From: Shigella phage vB_Shi_2KOFFS
Sequence record: PV615261
Strand: one strand, 5' to 3'
DNA length: 53,672 nt
Each line of letters opens with the position of its first letter. Within the stretch, counting starts at the first letter, position 1. A model generated the notes under the pieces. It saw only the letters and a program-made list of their open reading frames with translations, was not told the DNA's origin and searched no databases. This document shows positions 237 to 49,404 of the stretch, in pieces. Made by a program: the position numbers and the translations under genes.

Positions 237-443
237 ATGTTTTCAGAGTGGGTAAATGACCCAGGAAGCTCTAAACAAGCATACTTGAAGTTTTCACTAA
301 ATCCAGACAAAACAGTTGGTCATGTATATAATGGTGATTGGGATTTCAAAGTTGTCGAATTCAAGCCACCATATATGAAGGTTATCGTACTTCACCCGCG
401 CAAAGAGTTTGAAGTGGAGTTTAACTATGTTAGACCAGCTTAA
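237..443 (+). CDS. hypothetical protein (68 aa)
   Basis: ORF with ATG at 237 preceded by AAGGA Shine-Dalgarno; no recognisable motif. Confidence 0.4.
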   Translation: MFSEWVNDPGSSKQAYLKFSLNPDKTVGHVYNGDWDFKVVEFKPPYMKVIVLHPRKEFEVEFNYVRPA

Positions 444-666
444 GTCAATCTTTCTTGGCGTCTTGACTGCATTGGGCATTCTCCTTGCAGTGTTCCTCAA
501 AGGCAAAAGCTCGGGCAAAGCCGAGGAGCGCCAGGAAGCCAAAGAGAAGCAATTCGATTCCATTAAAGAATCTATCGAGATTAAAACGCATGTTCAGAAA
601 GAAGTGTCTAGCAGTTCTGATAGCAATGTCGATAGTGAGTTGCTCTCAAAGTGGGTTCGTAAGTGA
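427..666 (+). CDS. small membrane protein, one predicted TM helix
   Basis: ATG 427 after GGAG; hydrophobic segment IFLGVLTALGILLAVFL followed by charged Ser-rich tail. Confidence 0.4.
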   Translation: MLDQLKSIFLGVLTALGILLAVFLKGKSSGKAEERQEAKEKQFDSIKESIEIKTHVQKEVSSSSDSNVDSELLSKWVRK

Positions 667-762
667 TTACTGCATGATTGCACAACCAATCTATTTGGAT
701 GTTGCAGAAGTGAAAGTTTTATCACGCGAAACCAAAACACAGATTTTAGTCCACAATGAAAC

Positions 763-1233
763 GTGGGCACAAAAGTGTTCGAAACAATGAAACTATCAAA
801 GCAGTATATTTACGACAGAGTTTCTAAACGTCAGGAACCTACTTGGCAAGTAGACACAGATGGGTATTTATCTGCTTCGATTACTTTGCCGGAAGGCACC
901 TTCAACGTAAGAAAACATATTCTTGTGTTCTACAAAACGAACGGATACATTCCAGATTTTGTAGACCATAAAGATAACAACAAATTAAACAATGCTCCGG
1001 ACAACTTGCGAGAAGCAAGCAAATGCCAGAACCAGCAGAACTCCAAGAAGCCAAAGAATAACTCCTCTGGCGTGAAGGGAGTGTCACGAACCAAACATGG
1101 CAAGTGGCAAGTTAATGTTATGGCATTTGGTGTGAAGCATTATGGTGGATTGTTTGACTCTCTAGAAGATGCCAAGCAACACGTAGAATCATTGCGAATG
1201 AAGTTGCATCGTGACTTTGCTCGTAGTGTGTAG
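763..1233 (+). CDS. HNH homing endonuclease with AP2-type DNA-binding domain
   Basis: HNH motif VDHKDNNKLNNAPDNLR and AP2-like block SSGVKGVSRTKHGKWQV...HYGGLF; start uncertain (GTG 763 or ATG 787). Confidence 0.8.
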   Translation: MGTKVFETMKLSKQYIYDRVSKRQEPTWQVDTDGYLSASITLPEGTFNVRKHILVFYKTNGYIPDFVDHKDNNKLNNAPDNLREASKCQNQQNSKKPKNNSSGVKGVSRTKHGKWQVNVMAFGVKHYGGLFDSLEDAKQHVESLRMKLHRDFARSV

Positions 1234-3315: not shown

Positions 3316-5082
3316 ATGATGAACGTTAAGCAATGTGTGGCTAAGATTAAGCACGATGTACCAGACTGTAAATCCACATCTGGCAAGTCTTTACAGGTTT
3401 GGTTGAATGTCGATGAAGCTGGTAATAAGAATTTTTCTGGTTACTGTTTTGCATGTGGCGTTCTAGTACCAAATCCTTACGGAAATAATCCGGAGAACAT
3501 TCCAGAGATTAAAGTCAAAACTCCAGAAGAAATTCAGGAAGAAGTTGATGAAATCACTGCTTGTCCTCCGTTTGATTTAACCCATCGCAGCATTGAGCCA
3601 GAATTTTGGAAAGCTGCTGGTGTTCGACTTCTATATTCAGAGTATGATGGAAAGACTCCAAATGCTCTGGCACATGGCTACACCAAAAATGGTAAACTTG
3701 TTCGTTGGAAGATTAAACTTCTGAACAAGAAAGTTATGTGGTCAGTTGGCGACACTCAGGGTAACGACCCTTACAACTGGATGGCTGCAAAAGCAATTGG
3801 CGGTAAGACACTGTTCATCACAGAAGGTGAAGAAGACTGTATCGCATTGCGTCAAATCCTCAAAACTATGAACCGTGGTGGTGCATATGAAGATTTGGAT
3901 TTTGCTGTAATTAGTTTGAGCGACGGAAGTGATTCCGTACACAAATGTTTGTCACCAGTTGCAGAAGAAATTAAGCAACGTTGGGAGCAGGTTGTTATCG
4001 TATTTGATGATGACGAACCTGGACGTAAAGCTGCAAAAGAAGCGTGCCGATTGTTGCCTGGTGCAATGATTGCAACACTTCCAGCTAACGATGCCAACGA
4101 TTGTTTGAAGCGTGGCTTGCTCAAAGCTACTCAATCTGCTGTTGTGTTCCGTGCTGCTCGTCCTCTGCCTACAGCACTTGTCAACAAAGAACTTCTTATG
4201 GAAGAGCTTGATGACGAGGTTGAACAGGGTGTGGATTATCCTTGGCCCAAATTAACCGACTTAATGTTTGGTCAACGTCGAGCCGAAGTTATTACAATCG
4301 GTGGTGCAGAAGGTGGTGGTAAAACTACACTGTCCCGTCAGATTGTGCATCACAACATTACCAAGCACGATTGGGGAGTGTTTACTGCATACATGGAGGA
4401 AACTCCTACAGAAACACTGCGCCGTATGGCTGGCCTTAATGACAACTTGCCATATTGGGAACCCGCGTTCACTCGTGAAGACCCTCGATATGATGAAGCT
4501 AAGTTCCGTCAAACTGCTGCGAAGATGCTTCGTAACATGGAGATTTGGGACCGCAAGCAAGCTGGAGAAGACCCTTATGAAACCTGGGATGGGTTAAAGA
4601 CGATTCTTCGTCAGATTGGACCAGACATTGATATGTTTGTCCTTGATAACTTAACCTACTTATCGGAAGGGATTTCTGCCTCAGAGAAGAACGACTTCTT
4701 AGGTAAGCTGTATGCAGATATTACTAAGCTGGCAGACCAATATCAGTTCCATGTAAATATCTTGTCGCACCTTAACCCTGTGGCAAAAGGTCAACGACCT
4801 CATGAGGATGGTGGACGTATCAAGAAGTCAGACTTTACTGGCTCACGTGCTGCTGCTAAATATTCTCATGGTATGTTTGGCTTTGAGCGTAATAGCCAGG
4901 CAGTTGACCCAAACTGTTCTATCATTCGTTCCATTAAGGCTCGTAAGAGTGGTAAAACAGAAGGCTTCAAGACGTACTATGACACCGAATCCGGTCGAAT
5001 CATTCAACGTTCTTGGGATGACTCGCTGTTCGAAACCAAAGAGATTGTTCAACTCACTAAGAAGAACGGTCCACACCAATAA
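3316..5082 (+). CDS. bifunctional DNA primase-helicase (TOPRIM plus RecA/DnaB-like ATPase)
   Basis: N-terminal Cys cluster; TOPRIM motifs FITEGEEDCIAL and VVIVFDDDEPGRKAA; Walker A ITIGGAEGGGKTT; 588 aa. Confidence 0.85.
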   Translation: MMNVKQCVAKIKHDVPDCKSTSGKSLQVWLNVDEAGNKNFSGYCFACGVLVPNPYGNNPENIPEIKVKTPEEIQEEVDEITACPPFDLTHRSIEPEFWKAAGVRLLYSEYDGKTPNALAHGYTKNGKLVRWKIKLLNKKVMWSVGDTQGNDPYNWMAAKAIGGKTLFITEGEEDCIALRQILKTMNRGGAYEDLDFAVISLSDGSDSVHKCLSPVAEEIKQRWEQVVIVFDDDEPGRKAAKEACRLLPGAMIATLPANDANDCLKRGLLKATQSAVVFRAARPLPTALVNKELLMEELDDEVEQGVDYPWPKLTDLMFGQRRAEVITIGGAEGGGKTTLSRQIVHHNITKHDWGVFTAYMEETPTETLRRMAGLNDNLPYWEPAFTREDPRYDEAKFRQTAAKMLRNMEIWDRKQAGEDPYETWDGLKTILRQIGPDIDMFVLDNLTYLSEGISASEKNDFLGKLYADITKLADQYQFHVNILSHLNPVAKGQRPHEDGGRIKKSDFTGSRAAAKYSHGMFGFERNSQAVDPNCSIIRSIKARKSGKTEGFKTYYDTESGRIIQRSWDDSLFETKEIVQLTKKNGPHQ

Positions 5083-5143
5083 CAGAGTTGCTGCGCTGCA
5101 TGGTTCGCCCACCAGCGCGGCCCTCACTTTACAATAGTTGGAA

Positions 5144-37215: not shown

Positions 37216-37770
37216 ATGTTATCATTCAAAGTCCTTGCACTTCTGACAGCTTTAGTTCACATCAACGCCCCAGCTTCGGTTGGGGCAGTGAATTCTGCTA
37301 TTACAGATTTTGCAAGTCACTCTTATTTAAATGGAAGTCTGAAACTATCTTCTTCACAACGCAAAGAGCTAGAATGCTACACTAAAGTTATCTGGTATGA
37401 AGCTCGCGGAGAAGACAAACATGGAAAGATTCTGGTAGCTAATGTCGTCCGTAATAGAACTAAGTTCGGGAAGCCATTCGCTAACACCGTTTGTGATGTT
37501 GTCTATCAACGCAACCAATTTGCATGGACACGAGAAGCAAAGAAGAAGAATGCTCAATGGAAGCATGTAGCAAAGGTTAATTATGCCACAGAACAACAAC
37601 AAGTTCTGGACACCATTAATGTTGCAATCTCTTTTGTATTATTTAATCAACCCTCTGTCACCAAAGCAACCCACTTTTGTACAGCATCGGAGAAGTGCAA
37701 CTTCAAGAATGTTAAAGGTTTGGGACGTTATGGTGGCCATAAATTCTATGAGTATCTAGGAAATCTGTAA
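37216..37770 (+). CDS. SleB-type cell wall hydrolase with N-terminal signal peptide (endolysin)
   Basis: Signal-like [24 protein letters not shown]; SleB-family block [28 protein letters not shown]...[13 protein letters not shown]. Confidence 0.7.
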
Positions 37771-38870
37771 TGGCTTACACTACCTTTTCACAAACCAAGA
37801 ATAACCAACTATTAGAACCAATGTTCTTTGGTCAGAACGTTAACGTTGCTCGATATGACCAACAGAAGTACAGCATCTTCGAGAAGTTAATCGAGAAGCA
37901 GTTATCTTTCTTTTGGCGACCTGAGGAGGTTGATGTTAGCCAGGACCGAATTGACTATGCTGGTCTTCCTGAGTGTGAGAAACACATTTTCACCAGCAAT
38001 TTACGATACCAAATCCTGCTTGATTCCATTCAGGGACGCGGACCAACCACAGTTTTACTACCAATTGTGAGCATTCCTGAGCTGGAAACTTGGATTGAAA
38101 CTTGGTCATTTTCGGAGACAATTCACTCTCGCTCTTACACGCATATTATTCGTAATATCGTGACAGACCCAAGTGTCATTTTCGATGAAATTGTGGAGAA
38201 TGAGCACATTAAAATGCGTGCAATCGGCATCTCCCAATATTATGACGAGCTTCAACATCTGACTTCCATGTGGCATCTGCATGAAGATAAAGTTTCTCTT
38301 CGTGAGCTTAAGAAGAAGCTGTATTTATGCCTCATGTCCATTAATGCACTGGAAGCAATTCGCTTTTATGTCAGTTTTGCTTGCTCATTTGCCTTCGCTG
38401 AACGTAAGTTAATGGAAGGAAATGCCAAGATTATTCGCTTAATTGCTCGTGATGAAGCACTCCATTTGACCGGAACTCAGCACATGCTGAACCTTCTTGC
38501 AAGCGGTGTTGATGACCCAGAAATGGCCGAAATTGCTAAAGAATGCCGTCAAGAATGCCAAGAAATGTTCGAAAATGTGGCCCAACAAGAGAAAGATTGG
38601 GCTGATTATTTGTTCAAAGATGGCTCAATGATTGGCTTAAATAAGCAAATTCTGTGCGGATATGTGGAATATATCACGAATATTCGTATGCAAGCAGTTG
38701 GATTGGATGCTCCATTCAAAGGTGCTACTAACCCGATTCCTTGGATTAACGCATGGCTAAATTCGGATGCTGTACAAGTTGCTCCACAAGAAACGGAGAT
38801 TAGTTCGTACCTTGTCGGGCAGATTGATTCCGAAGTGGACACCAATGCTCTGGGCGGATTTGAGCTGTAA
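37770..38870 (+). CDS. nrdB: ribonucleotide reductase small subunit (class Ia R2-like)
   Basis: [20 protein letters not shown] and [30 protein letters not shown] match iron-ligand and tyrosyl-radical regions of class Ia NrdB. Confidence 0.75.
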
Positions 38871-39419: not shown

Positions 39420-39436
39420 CCATTAGTTGGTTGTGA
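39420..39436 (+). promoter_or_regulatory. conserved promoter-like motif (CATTAGTTGG family), upstream of RNA polymerase gene
   Basis: cCATTAGTTGGtTGTGA; one of at least 9 copies of consensus ACATTAGTTGGATGTGAA. Confidence 0.45.
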
Positions 39437-39498
39437 TTATGAATAGGCTACGCAAGTCTAATCCGTTTCAGTTAAATCATAATCAATTGGAGACTATC

Positions 39499-41613
39499 AT
39501 GACTAACGAAGAATACCGTGCACTGGCTGCTGATGGCGCTCGCTTGAAAGAAGAAGGCCAAGGTTGGAAAGACGTGCTCGATACGATGGACCGTTGCAAT
39601 CAGATGGTAGATGAAATCACCTCCGCTACACAATCCGAAACTAAAACCGAAACTAAATTGGAGACTCGCAAAATGACAACTATCTCAACTCAAACTATCA
39701 AATCCGTTGTCCCTGCTATCACTGCTCTGGTATATCGTGCCAAAGAGAAACAGAACTACATGCAACCTCAGACCTGTGCTATTGCTGCTCTTGCAATCTT
39801 TAAGATGATGACCTCATTCACTCGTGATGATGTTGTTCCTGCAATTGCAATGGTTGAGCTGGCTTCTGCTTCAATTGCTGATGCCAACCGCTACAACAAC
39901 GATTTGAAAGCAATGCACTATGTTGACCCAGCTATCAACCTCATTGGTCTGGCTAAACACTTTGGCTTCATCACCATGAACGAAGATAAGTCATTCCAAC
40001 AAACTGACACATGGGTTGAACTGGTTACAACCAAAGACACAGCAGTGCCATTCACTGAGCGTGTTACATCTGAATCTCGTCGCAAGCCTTTCGTTAAAGG
40101 TGGCAAAGTTAAGCCATCCAAGACTCTGAAAGCTGCAATCGAATTCCTGCAAGATACTGAGTACCATGTGGAGACTGAGATGGTTCGCATCATTCAGTCC
40201 ATGCTTGAGCAACGTACTTATGGTGGCTTGCAGATGCCAGAAGCAATCCAGACTGAACTCCATGTTTGGAACAATGCTGTAGCAATGATGAATCAGGACA
40301 CACTGTATTCTGACTACTTTGCTGATAACCGTGGCCGTCTGTATCATGTAGCATGTGCTGGCCCTAACCCACAATCCTCTGACTTTGCTCGTTGCTTGTA
40401 TTCTCACAATGTTGAGAACATCGTTAAGAAGTTTAACGAAGATGGTTCTACTACCATTGCATACAACATGTTCATGGCAGAGCTGGAAGATATTTCTGGT
40501 GGTGAATGGTGCAGTGCTAAACGTTTAACTTATGTTGCTCAGAATCCGGCTGGTTCACTTGCTCGCATGATGAACATGCCTAAAGCTGAACGTCCTTCCA
40601 AGCCATTCACTTATGTTCGTCTGGCTCTGGATTGGTTCAAGTTTGAGACTATAGGTGAATGCGATTCTCGTGTAGGCTTTGGCTTAGATGCTAAATGTTC
40701 TGGTACTCAATATCTGGCATTCATTGCTGGTAACATGGAAATGGCTCGTGCTACAGGTCTGGTTGATTCTGAGACTAAAGCATCTGACCCATACCAGTTG
40801 AGTCTCCGTGAACTGTTGAAGTTACTCGACCGCTCTTCAATGAAGCCATCTCCTGAAATCATGGACGAATTCTTGAATCCGAAATCTGGTCGTAAGTTTA
40901 TCAAAACTCCGTACATGGCTATCCAATATGGTGGTGGTAAAGCTGCATTAACTGGTTCTTCTGACTTTATCTCCTACATGACAGAAGCGCTCCAGATTCC
41001 TATGGAGAAAGCTGAGGCATTTGCTGAACTGTGTGTAGAAGCAATCCATAACGCATTGGGTGCTAAGATTAACATGTTCATTGAGAAAGCTGCTGATGCT
41101 GCATACAACCGTTGTGTTGAACTTGGTAAAGAGTACATCACATACCGTCACACAGACGGTCAGGTTGTAATGAAGCCTTGCTTCCCATCTCGTGAAATCT
41201 GTGAGGCATTCAGCATTCGTGTTGACTCTCAAACTCGTGTCATCTTTGGCCAGATTCAGGAGAATAAGCCTTGGACCATTCGTGAATCCAACCCAACTAA
41301 AGAAGAATTCAAGCGTACTTTCGTTGTTAACTACATTCAAGGTATTGACGCATTGGTTGCTCGTACTGTTGCAGTTAAAGCTAAAGAAGCTGGTCTTCGT
41401 GGTTTTACTTCAATCCATGATTGTTTCCGTTGCTGTCTGGCAGATGCTCCACGTATGATGGAAGTTATTCGTGCAGCATATGTTGAAATCTTCGTAACCA
41501 ACAATCAATTCGAGAATCTGTCTAAGCAACTTGGTGGCATTCAGATGTATCATGAGAACATCGTAACCGAAGAGCTTCTGATGAGCGAACACGCTTACTA
41601 CTTCTGTCAATAA
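39499..41613 (+). CDS. T7-like single-subunit DNA-dependent RNA polymerase
   Basis: Motif A GLDAKCSGTQYLAFIAG (T7 DGSCSGIQH), motif B RKFIKTPYMAIQYGGGK, motif C FTSIHDCFRC (T7 IHDSFGT); ATG 39499 after GGAG; about 704 aa. Confidence 0.8.
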   Translation: MTNEEYRALAADGARLKEEGQGWKDVLDTMDRCNQMVDEITSATQSETKTETKLETRKMTTISTQTIKSVVPAITALVYRAKEKQNYMQPQTCAIAALAIFKMMTSFTRDDVVPAIAMVELASASIADANRYNNDLKAMHYVDPAINLIGLAKHFGFITMNEDKSFQQTDTWVELVTTKDTAVPFTERVTSESRRKPFVKGGKVKPSKTLKAAIEFLQDTEYHVETEMVRIIQSMLEQRTYGGLQMPEAIQTELHVWNNAVAMMNQDTLYSDYFADNRGRLYHVACAGPNPQSSDFARCLYSHNVENIVKKFNEDGSTTIAYNMFMAELEDISGGEWCSAKRLTYVAQNPAGSLARMMNMPKAERPSKPFTYVRLALDWFKFETIGECDSRVGFGLDAKCSGTQYLAFIAGNMEMARATGLVDSETKASDPYQLSLRELLKLLDRSSMKPSPEIMDEFLNPKSGRKFIKTPYMAIQYGGGKAALTGSSDFISYMTEALQIPMEKAEAFAELCVEAIHNALGAKINMFIEKAADAAYNRCVELGKEYITYRHTDGQVVMKPCFPSREICEAFSIRVDSQTRVIFGQIQENKPWTIRESNPTKEEFKRTFVVNYIQGIDALVARTVAVKAKEAGLRGFTSIHDCFRCCLADAPRMMEVIRAAYVEIFVTNNQFENLSKQLGGIQMYHENIVTEELLMSEHAYYFCQ

Positions 41614-46130: not shown

Positions 46131-46148
46131 ACATTAGTTGGATTTGAA
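46131..46148 (+). promoter_or_regulatory. conserved promoter-like motif copy
   Basis: ACATTAGTTGGATtTGAA, 75 nt upstream of 46223. Confidence 0.45.
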
Positions 46149-46222: not shown

Positions 46223-46603
46223 ATGGCACAATATTCAGATGTAAACACTGGCATCATCGGTCCTAACGGCTTCAAGAAAGACCCAAAACATCCTGACATT
46301 CGTGGACGTATTAACGTTGACGGAATCTGGTATTGGGTGTCTGGTTGGAACAAGCAAGCCAATGGTAATGAATTTACCTCACTTGCATTAACCATCATGA
46401 CCCAAGAACAGGTTGATGAAATGATGCGTAAGCGTGAAGAGAAGGCTAAAGCCAAAGCTCAACCTCAAGCTGCCGCTCAACAGCAACAGCAACGCCAGCA
46501 ACCTTCTGCACAACAGCAAGCACCTGCTCAACAGCAAGCTCCGCAGTCATCTGGATACAACCCAAATGAGCCGCAGGACTTTGATAGCGACATACCATTC
46601 TGA
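46223..46603 (+). CDS. small protein with Gln-rich linker and SSB-type acidic C-terminal tail (DFDSDIPF)
   Basis: 126 aa; about 60-aa beta-rich N-terminus, Lys/Ala helix, QQQ-rich linker, terminal PQDFDSDIPF resembling the bacterial SSB C-terminal peptide. Confidence 0.6.
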   Translation: MAQYSDVNTGIIGPNGFKKDPKHPDIRGRINVDGIWYWVSGWNKQANGNEFTSLALTIMTQEQVDEMMRKREEKAKAKAQPQAAAQQQQQRQQPSAQQQAPAQQQAPQSSGYNPNEPQDFDSDIPF

Positions 46604-46995
46604 TGAATAAGGTCTGTAAAATCTGTGGGAGTTTAAAAGCTCCTACAGACTTCTATCGGAATGACAGGACATGTAAAGTTTGCCGTTGCGCCAAAGTACG
46701 TGCAAACCGTGCAGCAAAGATTGACCATTATCGCAAGTATGAACGAAAACGCGGTTATCATGGTAACGGCCTTAATGATGCCAGGAAGAAATATCCAAAT
46801 CAATATAAGGCCCAAACTGCTGTAAACAATGCTATTCGAGATGGACGATTACAGGCAAAACCTTGTCAAGTGTGCGGTTGCATTATATCTCATGCCCACC
46901 ATGATGATTACAACAAGCCTCTTGATGTTCGCTGGTTGTGTCCTCGCCACCACAATGAGTGGCACGCCGAAAACGGAGAGGGACTTAATCGATGA
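46603..46995 (+). CDS. HNH endonuclease (zinc-ribbon plus HNH)
   Basis: CKICGS...CKVCRC and HAHHDDYNKPLDVRWLCPRHHNEWH; paralogue of 5144..5527. Confidence 0.7.
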   Translation: MNKVCKICGSLKAPTDFYRNDRTCKVCRCAKVRANRAAKIDHYRKYERKRGYHGNGLNDARKKYPNQYKAQTAVNNAIRDGRLQAKPCQVCGCIISHAHHDDYNKPLDVRWLCPRHHNEWHAENGEGLNR

Positions 46996-47100: not shown

Positions 47101-47790
47101 ATGGCAAATAACTTTGTCGAAATACCTGCCAATTTGGTCAAACCTGGTGATGTATTGGTTTACGGCAACAGGGAATACCGGATTGAAAACATTCTACGGT
47201 TTAGTGATGCAGTTCAGTTGCAATATTCTGGTGGGTACTACAATTTTGAATTTGGCCGCATAGTCAAAGTGCTCGACAGGCCACCAGCTTTGGAAACTCC
47301 AACAGCAACATTCAACACCCAGATAACACCAGTATTTCTCCCCTATGGTGAAGCAGTGAAGCCATTCTCAGACGAAGAGGATGTTAAGGGTGCTGATGTA
47401 GAAGTTGGTGATGTTATTTGGTACAAGGGAAATTGGGCAACTGTTACAAATACGTACAAGCATCCGTACTCACCATACAATAAAGTCAATATTGACCATG
47501 ATGGTGTAAAAGGTCTGCAAGTACGCCTGACATTATCTGGAACTTATTCAAGAAAGGTAAGAGCAATAATGGAAACATTAAATATTCAAAATGCAATCGA
47601 AGCGCAACGTATTCTTCTGCAAAAGCTAGAGCAAATGCTGGACTTACAGCAACTTGCACCAACAGAAGATGGCAAGATTGCAATCGGCAACTGTAACATT
47701 CGCGTGGACAAGGCATCAATCACTAAAGCCGCACGCGATGAAATGAAAGCTGCTGCAAGCAAATCAGCAGAGCTTATTAAGAAGCTGTAA
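47101..47790 (+). CDS. hypothetical protein (229 aa)
   Basis: ATG after GAGGAATATC; no motif recognised. Confidence 0.55.
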   Translation: MANNFVEIPANLVKPGDVLVYGNREYRIENILRFSDAVQLQYSGGYYNFEFGRIVKVLDRPPALETPTATFNTQITPVFLPYGEAVKPFSDEEDVKGADVEVGDVIWYKGNWATVTNTYKHPYSPYNKVNIDHDGVKGLQVRLTLSGTYSRKVRAIMETLNIQNAIEAQRILLQKLEQMLDLQQLAPTEDGKIAIGNCNIRVDKASITKAARDEMKAAASKSAELIKKL

Positions 47791-47842
47791 TTAACAGAGG
47801 TCATTCCACTTCGAGTGGCCTCGATTAATTATTGGAGGAATT

Positions 47843-48202
47843 ATGAAACTTAAGTACATCATTATTTATACTTTAGCATTAATTGTTTTGGCGTTCTTCA
47901 GCTTTGAGTCTAAAGCGTCAACAAAGAACTTCAAATGTGGAGCATATGCTCTTGTAATTGATAACATCGGAGACAGCCAACCTCTGATTGCGTCAATAAT
48001 TCCTGAAGCTGGTGTTTGGATAGAGGTTCCAAGTGATGAACCCAATCCTGCAACAGTTTTGTTTTACAACATTAAAGATAGCAGGTTTGCTGCACTGTTT
48101 ATAAATCATGAAGATAAACTTGTACTTCAGATTTTCCGTGACGGAGACTTCCTCAAAGCAAACTACCCTATCTTATCCACCAGCTGTACGGAGAAGAAAT
48201 GA
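47843..48202 (+). CDS. secreted/periplasmic protein with N-terminal signal peptide
   Basis: MKLKYIIIYTLALIVLAFFSFESKAS signal-like N-terminus; ATG after GGAGGAATT. Confidence 0.5.
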   Translation: MKLKYIIIYTLALIVLAFFSFESKASTKNFKCGAYALVIDNIGDSQPLIASIIPEAGVWIEVPSDEPNPATVLFYNIKDSRFAALFINHEDKLVLQIFRDGDFLKANYPILSTSCTEKK

Positions 48203-48432
48203 CTTCAACCGAATTTACCATTGATGGAGTTCAATACCTGCTGGAATCTGATTGCGAATATCGCCATTGGACAGTAGTTCACGACCGAGTTGTAAAATAC
48301 TTGGAACGTGTAGGGAAGGAAACTGCTAAATCTATGTTGTTTGAGGCAACAGTTCTTGGAACAACCTCAATCAATAAAGAATTAGTGTCTTTCAAATTAA
48401 CCATTCACCCTAGCGGGAATAGCTTTCAATGA
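48199..48432 (+). CDS. hypothetical protein (77 aa)
   Basis: ATGA overlap. Confidence 0.45.
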   Translation: MTSTEFTIDGVQYLLESDCEYRHWTVVHDRVVKYLERVGKETAKSMLFEATVLGTTSINKELVSFKLTIHPSGNSFQ

Positions 48433-48704
48433 TTTCGATAGACCAAGTTCCAGTTGAACTAAGTAAGGCAAAAGGTAAGCTAGATGATGCCAAATCTGAC
48501 TTATCTACCTTTGATTTAAATGCTCCGGCCGATAAAGTTAAAGTTTTCATCGACTGTATTGACGGATGGGTGCTTGTTGAGCACGCAGTCCTTCGAGCAT
48601 TACTTGTTGATGAAGTTACCAAGGCTCAGGCATCATTTGATGAACTTGATAACCTCAACACACTGTTAAACAATACTTTAAACGATGCGTTAAAGGGTAA
48701 ATAA
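48429..48704 (+). CDS. hypothetical protein (91 aa)
   Basis: ATGA overlap. Confidence 0.45.
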   Translation: MISIDQVPVELSKAKGKLDDAKSDLSTFDLNAPADKVKVFIDCIDGWVLVEHAVLRALLVDEVTKAQASFDELDNLNTLLNNTLNDALKGK

Positions 48705-49117
48705 TGAATGTTAAGCTCGGTCAACGTTCTTTAGACCGACTTAAGGGAGTAAATCCTTCATTAGTTGCAGTTTTCAAACGAGCATGTGAAACCATGCCTT
48801 TTGATGTAACTGTTTTGGAAGGTTTACGCTCTTATGAACGTCAACAAGAACTGTTAAAACAAGGTGCAACCAAAGTTTCAGTAAGCCGACACATGTCTGG
48901 TAACGCTTTGGACATTGCACCATATCCAATTGACTGGAATGACCTCGAACGATTCAAAGTTTTAGCTCATCACATGTTCAAAGCTGCAAAAGAGCTTGGA
49001 ATTACCATTCGTTGGGGCGGGAACTGGAGCCGTATTGATGAAAATCAGCCGTATCCACCACTTGCACCAGGTAAGAAGAAGCTGATTGATATGCCCCACT
49101 TCGAACTTCCAGCATAA
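48704..49117 (+). CDS. peptidase M15 family cell-wall peptidase (zinc D,D- or L-Ala-D-Glu peptidase fold)
   Basis: Zinc-ligand pattern [13 protein letters not shown] plus C-terminal MPHFEL; 137 aa, no signal peptide. Confidence 0.65.
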
Positions 49118-49137
49118 CTTCATCAATGGAGAATCCG

Positions 49138-49404
49138 ATGAATTATCAAGACATACCAGCAGAGATTCAGCATCACTATGCCCGTATAGATAAGGCAAAG
49201 AAAGAATTGCATCAAATGTCTGCGCTGAATCTAAGCGATGAAGTTCGATTAAATGCTTATATGGAGGTTGGAGAAACTTCCATGAAAATTAGCTTCAATG
49301 AGAAAGAAGCTATTATGCGGACGCTTATTAAAAATAGCGAGGAAAGATTAGTAAAACTTCGTAAAATACATAGTGCACTAACTGACACAATGGAGAGCAT
49401 ATGA
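49138..49404 (+). CDS. hypothetical protein (88 aa)
   Basis: ATG 49138. Confidence 0.45.

Follow-up and report, generated by a model that had tools for sequence, protein, structure and literature searches.

What does a cytoplasmic cell-wall peptidase do when its gene lies far from the holin gene, at the end of a gene run that opens with a secreted protein? We addressed this question for positions 47,843 to 49,117 of Shigella phage vB_Shi_2KOFFS (sequence record PV615261), within an analyzed stretch of 53,672 nucleotides, hereafter the window. The initial annotation of this locus, made from the sequence alone, had set its 137-aa M15 zinc peptidase beside another hydrolase, a signal-peptide SleB-type enzyme next to a holin, and had suggested that the two play different roles, such as lysis versus entry, exclusion, or a hydrolase/inhibitor pair. 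The underlying observation was confirmed by our analysis, and the interpretation proved mostly correct and partly supported, with its core already annotated publicly. Our preferred reading, to which we assign a probability of roughly 0.6, is that the M15 protein is the working T5-type endolysin of a two-enzyme holin system, and that the secreted protein encoded at 47843 (the 47843 product) is a separate periplasmic player that does not act on it. The coordinates of all features are given in Table 1.

The peptidase belongs to the subfamily of proven phage endolysins

The M15 protein passes the Pfam model Peptidase_M15_4 (PF13539) with 35.7 bits against a cut-off of 25 (E 1.3e-8) and matches PHROG 465, annotated as "endolysin" (E 1.5e-54). 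Its relatives in the PDB, with E values of 1e-18 to 1e-24 overall, include the solved phage L-Ala-D-Glu peptidases 23ri and 8q2g (E ~1e-24), EndoT5 (2mxz, E 1e-19; also 8p3a), and Serratia ChiX (5opz). In an alignment with the T5-type enzyme and gp21 of phage phiEcoM-GJ1 (GJ1), H63-x6-D70 and D130/H132 fall on the zinc ligands and the catalytic Asp, and W108, equivalent to T5 W114 and RB49 W109, is invariant. The ligand pattern that had been read from the letters thus held on a proper alignment, with H63, D70, D130, and H132 all in place. The roles of the zinc ligands, the catalytic Asp, and the conserved Trp have been described for the M15C subfamily, to which the proven endolysins of T5 and RB49/RB43 also belong (PMC10487532). 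The maximum 15-residue Kyte-Doolittle hydropathy of the M15 protein is 0.74, leaving no hydrophobic segment or signal-arrest-release (SAR) domain and, as had been proposed, no export signal.

The likeness to EndoT5 and EndoRB49/RB43 therefore covers the length class, the Pfam and PHROG family, the His-x6-Asp ... His pattern, the catalytic Asp and the Trp, the lack of a signal peptide, and a gene position outside the late structural block. The M15 protein differs from the T5-type enzyme in sharing only ~38% identity with it, in carrying a different, allele-variable insert in place of the regulatory Ca2+ loop of EndoT5, and in being encoded away from the holin gene.

The protein is 100% identical to the "endolysin" of Escherichia phage BSBP01 and to a TH25 protein, and 81-100% identical to the orthologues in GJ1, ST32, and BSBP01. 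Two alleles occur, which differ almost only in the loop preceding the catalytic Asp/His (residues ~106-131): GJ1 has ERSFTKPVKWAKFLD where the window has another 21-residue stretch. The window carries the BSBP01/TH25 allele, with the longer C-terminal loop. In EndoT5, the corresponding region is the site of the regulatory calcium (PMC10487532).

The gene lies in a unit probably served by the phage RNA polymerase

The window belongs to a phiEcoM-GJ1-like phage of the Chaseviridae, subfamily Cleopatravirinae, and all its real genes are on the + strand. Between 47000 and 50000, it is 92.6% identical to BSBP01 over the full length and 86-92% identical to ~45 other phiEcoM-GJ1-like Chaseviridae phages. 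The locus consists of four open reading frames (ORFs) on the + strand, at 47843-48202 (119 aa), 48199-48432 (77 aa), 48429-48704 (91 aa), and 48704-49117 (137 aa). Since their junctions are ATGA, ATGA, and TAATG overlaps, we regard the run as tight and probably translationally coupled; together with the N-terminal signal of the 47843 product, these overlaps bear out the earlier description of a tight four-gene run opening with a secreted protein.

The block lies downstream of the gene for a single-subunit RNA polymerase (39427-41613), with which, as a query, we retrieved 108 Chaseviridae records. Scanning the window for the consensus of the promoter motif annotated in GJ1 (ACATTAGTTGGATGTGA) yielded 10 matches against 0.3 expected, at 39420, 41633, 41894, 42766, 46131, 50241, 50381, and 52345, with weaker copies at 5131 and 7574. 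The copies cluster in the block downstream of the polymerase gene, and one lies directly upstream of the polymerase ORF itself. The copy at 46131 (ACATTAGTTGGATTTGA) shortly precedes the SSB gene, and none follows it until 50241; these two positions place the M15 gene in a phage-polymerase unit in the order SSB, HNH endonuclease, gp17, four-gene run, and ArdA. From its promoter motifs and gene content, this unit appears to be of the middle/DNA-metabolism class and not part of the block transcribed early by the host polymerase, so the assignment of the locus to the "early region" did not stand.

A cytoplasmic peptide-stem hydrolase and a secreted SleB-like enzyme recur together

In GJ1, gp18-gp23 likewise comprise the four-gene run, a ~90-aa gene, and ArdA, in that order. 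The set recurs in Erwinia phage Y2 (gp23-gp28), where 181 bp separate gp23 from the next gene, and, in unchanged order, in Aeromonas phage phiA050, where 106 bp separate the second gene from the third. The arrangement extends to two metagenomic contigs, in which the first-gene product is 29% and 23% identical to that of the window and the series ends with a Peptidase_M15_4 protein, a ~90-aa ORF, and an ArdA-sized ORF; contig L020 has two small ORFs before the peptidase, and contig L021 has one, after a 229-bp gap. In the Nefertitivirinae, which form the sister subfamily (Shewanella phage Spp001 and Aeromonas phage BUCT696), a signal-less M15-clan peptidase is encoded directly upstream of the SleB-like gene, in a late cassette that follows the tail fibers and small membrane proteins.

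In other phages, the enzyme itself has been exchanged. The non-late slot of Proteus phage Myduc holds an M15A enzyme (Peptidase_M15_3, 105 bits), and that of Pectobacterium phage PM1 holds a CHAP-domain enzyme, with first-gene and gp20 homologues still upstream of it. Because non-orthologous M15C, M15A, and CHAP enzymes fill the slot, its occupants appear to have a real muralytic role, and the replacement of M15C in Myduc and PM1 suggests selection for a cytoplasmic peptide-stem hydrolase and not for a particular fold. As judged from these gene layouts, the recurrent unit appears to be a cytoplasmic peptide-stem hydrolase plus a secreted SleB-like enzyme, family-wide in the Chaseviridae and present also in T5.

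The remaining lysis genes suggest a division of labor

The initial annotation had placed a holin and a signal-peptide SleB-type hydrolase in another transcription block, and family matches (Phage_holin_3_1 and Hydrolase_2) together with an N-terminal signal substantiated this cassette. The holin gene immediately follows a tail-fiber assembly gene, and family membership suggests that its product forms large holes. The SleB-like protein matches the SleB structure 4f55 and has an N-terminal signal, conserved Cys54 and Cys93, and an E-[AS]-R-G-E motif whose invariant E62 would be the catalytic Glu, as in SleB. All five SleB-like proteins compared (window, Y2, BUCT696, Spp001, and T5) start with a signal that includes an AxA-type site, and one Glu and two cysteines are invariant among them. 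Their signal peptides look cleavable rather than like SAR anchors, which would leave nothing obvious to hold the SleB-like enzyme back. A SAR-endolysin reading of this protein was also considered and found less likely, given the short hydrophobic region and the AxA sites in five divergent homologues. The overlapping spanin genes of the window have an annotated equivalent in GJ1 gp31.

The two peptidoglycan hydrolases named initially both exist and are indeed unrelated, but the window holds three such activities in all, the third being an SLT domain in the tape-measure-like virion protein (1223 aa, 23377-27048), also given in the annotation of GJ1 gp62. This domain is the likely entry enzyme. 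An entry role for either stand-alone hydrolase, one of the roles suggested earlier, is unlikely: besides the SLT domain, the virion proteome list of phage 4HA13 (15 proteins with at least 50% coverage) includes the tape-measure protein and neither hydrolase, in itself weak evidence. That the two enzymes play different roles is nevertheless very probable, one being a peptide-stem cutter released from the cytoplasm and the other lysozyme-like and Sec-exported.

We infer the following order of events. The phage RNA polymerase would transcribe the M15 gene within the middle unit, alongside SSB and ArdA, and the enzyme would build up harmlessly in the cytoplasm. It would reach the wall only once the lambda-S-family holin has opened the inner membrane, while the Sec-exported SleB-like enzyme encoded next to the holin would attack the glycan strands. 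The Rz/Rz1 spanins would disrupt the outer membrane last. The 47843 product would stand apart from these steps as a disulfide-bonded, eight-stranded barrel of the PliC/MliC/ACP type, most likely binding a lysozyme-fold hydrolase.

The secreted neighbor is predicted to fold like a lysozyme inhibitor

The 47843 product contains one hydrophobic segment, at its N terminus (residues 2-22), with SKA/S after it. Its family is very small, comprising 72 phage records, all of Chaseviridae type; when 1.8 billion representatives were searched exhaustively with phmmer, only 17 clusters were recovered, all of small phage-type proteins. Across an alignment of 16 members, the export signal recurs, C32, G57, A83, and C115 are invariant, and W59, E61, and P63 are nearly so. 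The AlphaFold2 model built from this alignment has a predicted local distance difference test score (pLDDT) of 92.9 and shows eight strands after a helix at the N terminus. Structurally, it matches PliC, PhiA, and ACP-type lysozyme inhibitors best, and a Foldseek search against viral models returned only Chaseviridae orthologues.

In the model, C32 lies on the first strand (26-32) and C115 on the last (111-117), and both are invariant in the 16 members. A disulfide between strands 1 and 8 is conserved throughout MliC/PliC/ACP and in PhiA (PMC5507604, PMC8334348), and the predicted C32-C115 pair would reproduce this hallmark. W59, E61, and P63 map to strand 4 and the start of loop 4, the loop that MliC/PliC and ACP insert into the lysozyme cleft. 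The 47843 product is thus predicted to fold like the bacterial periplasmic lysozyme inhibitors, a fold class undescribed in phages so far. With MliC/PliC, Neisseria ACP, and Brucella PhiA, it shares the signal peptide, the predicted ~90-residue eight-stranded barrel, the cysteines on strands 1 and 8, and peak conservation at strand 4/loop 4. It differs from MliC/PliC in being encoded by a virulent phage and in showing neither detectable sequence similarity nor the SxSGAxY and YxxxTKG motifs.

This gene occurs as two strongly divergent alleles. Identity to the window is 97-98% in BSBP01, TH37, PO103-1, and PYps23T and ~44% in GJ1, ST32, and the majority of the others; in Mangalitsa, it is 34%. 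For the flanking genes, the values are mostly ~90% or more, with gp17 at 54-96%. Since alleles of 44% identity sit within genomes whose flanks are ~90% identical, we suggest that the gene undergoes diversifying exchange, as seen in exclusion and host-interaction proteins.

Is the secreted protein a partner of the peptidase, as the proposed hydrolase/inhibitor pair would have it? The inhibitor half of that proposal fits the predicted fold; the M15 enzyme as its target does not. Per-gene identities between the window and 10 related genomes showed no correspondence between the first-gene allele and M15, SleB, holin, or tape-measure protein, a result that speaks against a tightly co-evolving pair, although this co-variation test has low power, with only two allele classes. 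In TH37, the first gene is of the window type (97%) and M15 is the other allele (81%); in TH25, conversely, M15 is identical and the first gene is the other allele (44%). PM1 retains a 47843 homologue though its M15 enzyme is replaced by a CHAP enzyme. Known inhibitors with the PliC/MliC/ACP fold act on lysozyme-fold enzymes, not metallopeptidases (PMC5507604, PMC7677548). The separate compartments, the independent assortment of alleles, the retention in PM1, and the metallopeptidase fold together make M15 an unlikely target, and the 47843 product is probably not an M15 inhibitor.

As modeled, the product may instead inhibit a lysozyme-fold hydrolase, either the tail transglycosylase of a superinfecting phage or the phage's own SleB-like enzyme. 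Taken as a whole, we hold this inhibitor idea only tentatively. The same caution applies to the further step of regarding the 47843 family as the first phage-encoded inhibitors of the PliC/MliC/ACP class, a doubtful but attractive possibility in which they would act in exclusion or as a brake on the phage's own SleB-like enzyme until the holin fires. Exclusion would fit alleles that are only 44% identical within genomes otherwise more than 90% identical. A possible parallel is T4 Spackle (gp61.3), a periplasmic disulfide-bonded protein made before the late phase that blocks the tail lysozyme of superinfecting phages and spares the endolysin (PMC7677548). Like Spackle, the 47843 product would be small, periplasmic, and disulfide-bonded, and would be produced ahead of the late genes. 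Spackle folds as an alpha-helical bundle, acts allosterically, and is unrelated to the bacterial beta-sheet inhibitors (PMC7677548). Given the all-beta barrel of our model, we rejected membership in the Spackle family and retain the analogy at the level of function only.

Competing explanations

Several observations weigh against the preferred reading. The gene adjacent to the holin is the SleB-like gene, which the usual adjacency rule would make "the" endolysin, and the M15 gene lies ~11.5 kb from the holin, so the customary endolysin-holin adjacency is absent. The loop that binds regulatory calcium in EndoT5 differs in the M15 protein, and also between its two alleles. Our literature search found no experiment on any Chaseviridae lysis gene. 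As for the 47843 product, a Pfam scan of 16 family members at E values up to 10 gave no match, a family profile search of 5.8 billion proteins gave no link to MliC/PliC, and a family profile search of PDB sequences gave no match. The SxSGAxY (loop 4) and YxxxTKG (strand 6) motifs do not occur in the family alignment; ACP is an inhibitor of the same fold without them, and PhiA also lacks them (PMC8334348 for PhiA). PhiA, one of the top structural matches, did not inhibit in vitro the target proposed for it (PMC8334348), which illustrates that the fold alone is no guarantee of direct inhibition.

One alternative is that the holin-adjacent, Sec-exported SleB-like enzyme is the real endolysin and that M15 is dispensable for lysis, with another job in the middle phase; a candidate is the cleavage of cytoplasmic peptidoglycan precursors at the same L-Ala-D-Glu bond, halting wall synthesis. 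Besides the adjacency to the holin, the labels "endolysin" or "SAR endolysin" given to the SleB-like proteins of relatives and the co-transcription of M15 with DNA-metabolism genes speak for it. T5, however, makes a signal-peptide SleB protein from early promoters without early lysis, and its proven endolysin is the M15C enzyme. The cleavable-looking signals, with AxA sites and a short hydrophobic region, would leave the SleB-like enzyme unrestrained, and the replacement of M15 by CHAP or M15A enzymes fits wall degradation. We therefore consider this alternative unlikely, though the most serious of those weighed here. A pairing in which the 47843 product specifically inhibits M15 or confers immunity to it could draw on the single coupled operon, conserved down to 23% first-gene identity, and on the predicted inhibitor-type fold of its first product. 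It is very unlikely in view of the different compartments that the two proteins occupy until lysis, the independently assorting alleles of TH37 and TH25, the first gene kept beside a CHAP hydrolase in PM1, and the lysozyme-fold targets of known inhibitors of this fold.

The map of T7 offers another comparison: there, lysozyme 3.5 belongs to class II, holin 17.5 follows the tail fiber, and the spanins are 18.5/18.7. The window resembles this map in having a wall hydrolase near SSB in a polymerase-dependent middle block, a holin after the fiber genes, and separate spanins; it differs in that the enzyme is an M15 peptidase and not an amidase, and in having an additional SleB-like enzyme. Could M15 then be an analogue of T7 lysozyme gp3.5, mainly binding and down-regulating the phage's T7-like RNA polymerase? 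The single-subunit polymerase with its own promoters and the T7-like order of polymerase, SSB, and hydrolase, with the holin after the fibers and the spanins elsewhere, would agree with this. The M15 fold, however, is unrelated to T7 lysozyme, and three unrelated enzyme types fill the slot in phages whose polymerases are 66-76% identical. Non-orthologous occupants are hard to fit with a conserved polymerase-binding surface, and we rejected this candidate as highly improbable. Least probable of all is a virion-associated or entry function for M15. Some phages do have M15 domains in tail proteins (PHROG 1768, matching a large protein), but here the 137-aa peptidase stands alone and is encoded in a non-structural unit, an SLT domain is already present in the tape-measure protein, and M15 is absent from the 4HA13 list (at least 50% coverage). 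The reading of M15 as a holin-dependent endolysin is the one we retain.

Neighboring genes and further observations

Between the secreted protein and the peptidase, the run encodes two small proteins. The gp19-like protein is conserved from coliphages to Aeromonas phages (30-sequence alignment); its model from this alignment has a pLDDT of 79 and gave no informative structural match. The gp20-like protein has no family match in Pfam scans. It keeps its place immediately upstream of the signal-less hydrolase even when this is the CHAP enzyme of PM1 (36% identity, E 7e-11, for the homologue directly upstream), and it is replaced or absent in TH53 and ST32. That gp20 acts as a cytoplasmic chaperone or restraint for the hydrolase is only a guess. 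Downstream of M15, where relatives also have a ~90-aa protein, the product of 49126-49404 is possibly a distant gp20 paralogue, as suggested by a weak N-terminal similarity (E 0.001 for a single comparison).

Upstream of the run, an 18-bp interrupted RNA hairpin (minimum free energy -21.2 kcal/mol, z -4.1) separates gp17 from the first gene. It is sequence-identical in all Carltongylesvirus genomes examined, whichever first-gene allele follows, and because of this identity, covariation speaks neither for nor against a function. The hairpin may serve in RNase III-type processing or in attenuation, or it may mark a recombination boundary. Free-standing HNH endonuclease genes occur at 46603-46995 and 763-1233. 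Most relatives, GJ1 and BSBP01 among them, lack the former, which lies between SSB and gp17, and TH29 has a copy of 88% identity; by this distribution, the gene resembles a mobile insertion.

Two further observations concern other parts of the window. The tape-measure protein has a YqaJ-like viral recombinase/exonuclease domain in its middle (aa 459-595, ~24751-25161; PF09588, 47.9 bits against a cut-off of 22), and a nuclease-fold domain within a tape-measure protein is unusual. At the end of the late block, the genes for the holin and the SleB-like enzyme are directly followed by one for the small subunit of ribonucleotide reductase (37770-38870). No large-subunit gene was seen near it; the Nefertitivirinae carry both subunits elsewhere in the genome.

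Table 1. Coordinates of the features discussed, as positions in the window, with the evidence for each
Feature	Position	Strand	Evidence
Overlapping Rz/Rz1-like spanin genes (ORFs 409-666 and 485-790)	409..790	+	PHROG 1026 and PHROG 1275 "Rz-like spanin"
SLT lytic-transglycosylase domain, aa 1058-1134 of the tape-measure-like protein	26548..26778	+	Pfam SLT, 28.5 bits vs cut-off 21.3
Lambda-S-family holin, 113 aa	36857..37198	+	Pfam Phage_holin_3_1, 34.9 bits; PHROG 126; several hydrophobic segments
Predicted Sec-exported SleB-like (Hydrolase_2) cell-wall hydrolase, 184 aa	37216..37770	+	Pfam, 58.6 bits vs cut-off 27
Phage-RNA-polymerase-type promoter motif	46131..46147	+	1 mismatch vs consensus of annotated GJ1 promoters
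RNA hairpin between the gp17 stop codon and the first-gene ribosome-binding site	47787..47832	+	Terminator scan
gp18-like secreted protein, 119 aa	47843..48202	+	Signal peptide; predicted eight-stranded PliC/MliC-like beta-barrel, Cys32/Cys115
gp19-like small cytoplasmic protein, 77 aa	48199..48432	+	Predicted beta-beta-alpha-beta-beta fold
gp20-like acidic helical protein, 91 aa	48429..48704	+	PHROG 31001
Predicted M15C zinc L-alanyl-D-glutamate endopeptidase, 137 aa	48704..49117	+	Orthologue of phiEcoM-GJ1 gp21 "endolysin"
92-aa helical protein downstream of M15	49126..49404	+	Weak N-terminal similarity to gp20

Discussion

Much of this locus was already on record. The M15 protein is the orthologue of GJ1 gp21, annotated "endolysin" since 2008 and included in a published alignment of M15C peptidases (PMC10487532), and is ordinary in itself; GJ1 gp21, ST32 ORF24, and the BSBP01 "endolysin" represent this very gene, also within the four-gene context. 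GJ1 gp74, the orthologue of the SleB-like gene, is likewise annotated "endolysin", and the label "SAR endolysin" is also found among relatives. Since gp21 and gp74 both bear the endolysin label, the two-hydrolase layout was itself recorded, as it was in ST32, where ORF24 and ORF78 are both called "endolysin" and ORF77 holin (PMC6266442; the paper contains no proteomics). Two things are new here: the pairing of two enzymes throughout the family, in which the peptidase can be exchanged, and the predicted lysozyme-inhibitor-like fold of the secreted neighbor.

Some public labels call for a second look. The 158-aa protein of PM1 (3427-3903) is annotated "baseplate hub subunit and tail lysozyme"; given that Pfam finds only a CHAP domain (28.7 bits) and that the gene occupies the endolysin slot, this looks like a mis-annotation. 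The PO103-1 and PYps3T records label the secreted barrel protein "endolysin", which similarly looks mis-annotated.

Among the closest known systems is T5, in which an M15C enzyme without a signal and a SleB protein with a cleavable signal are likewise encoded in one genome. The pairing with the holin differs: in T5, the holin partners M15C and sleb lies elsewhere, among early promoters, whereas in the window the holin partners the SleB-like gene and M15C lies elsewhere. An M15C-type enzyme also adjoins the holin in the T5-like phage AKFV33. In T5-like Salmonella phages, M15C is found beside the holin and a SleB-domain protein far off, and the authors of that study leave undecided which enzyme is in use (PMC11180984).

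The M15 peptidase itself adds little, being another copy of a well-studied and already annotated endolysin family. For endolysin-based antimicrobials, an M15C variant whose loop is unlike that of EndoT5, together with its two natural alleles, offers a ready comparison set. The consistent pairing of a cytoplasmic peptide cutter with a secreted SleB-like enzyme in Chaseviridae and T5-like phages poses a question about how Gram-negative hosts are lysed. The lysozyme-inhibitor-like fold of the 47843 product is a testable and modestly novel lead. If the protein does inhibit a hydrolase, it would represent a second, independent phage-encoded control of periplasmic wall hydrolases after T4 Spackle, and such an inhibitor could act in superinfection exclusion or in the timing of lysis.

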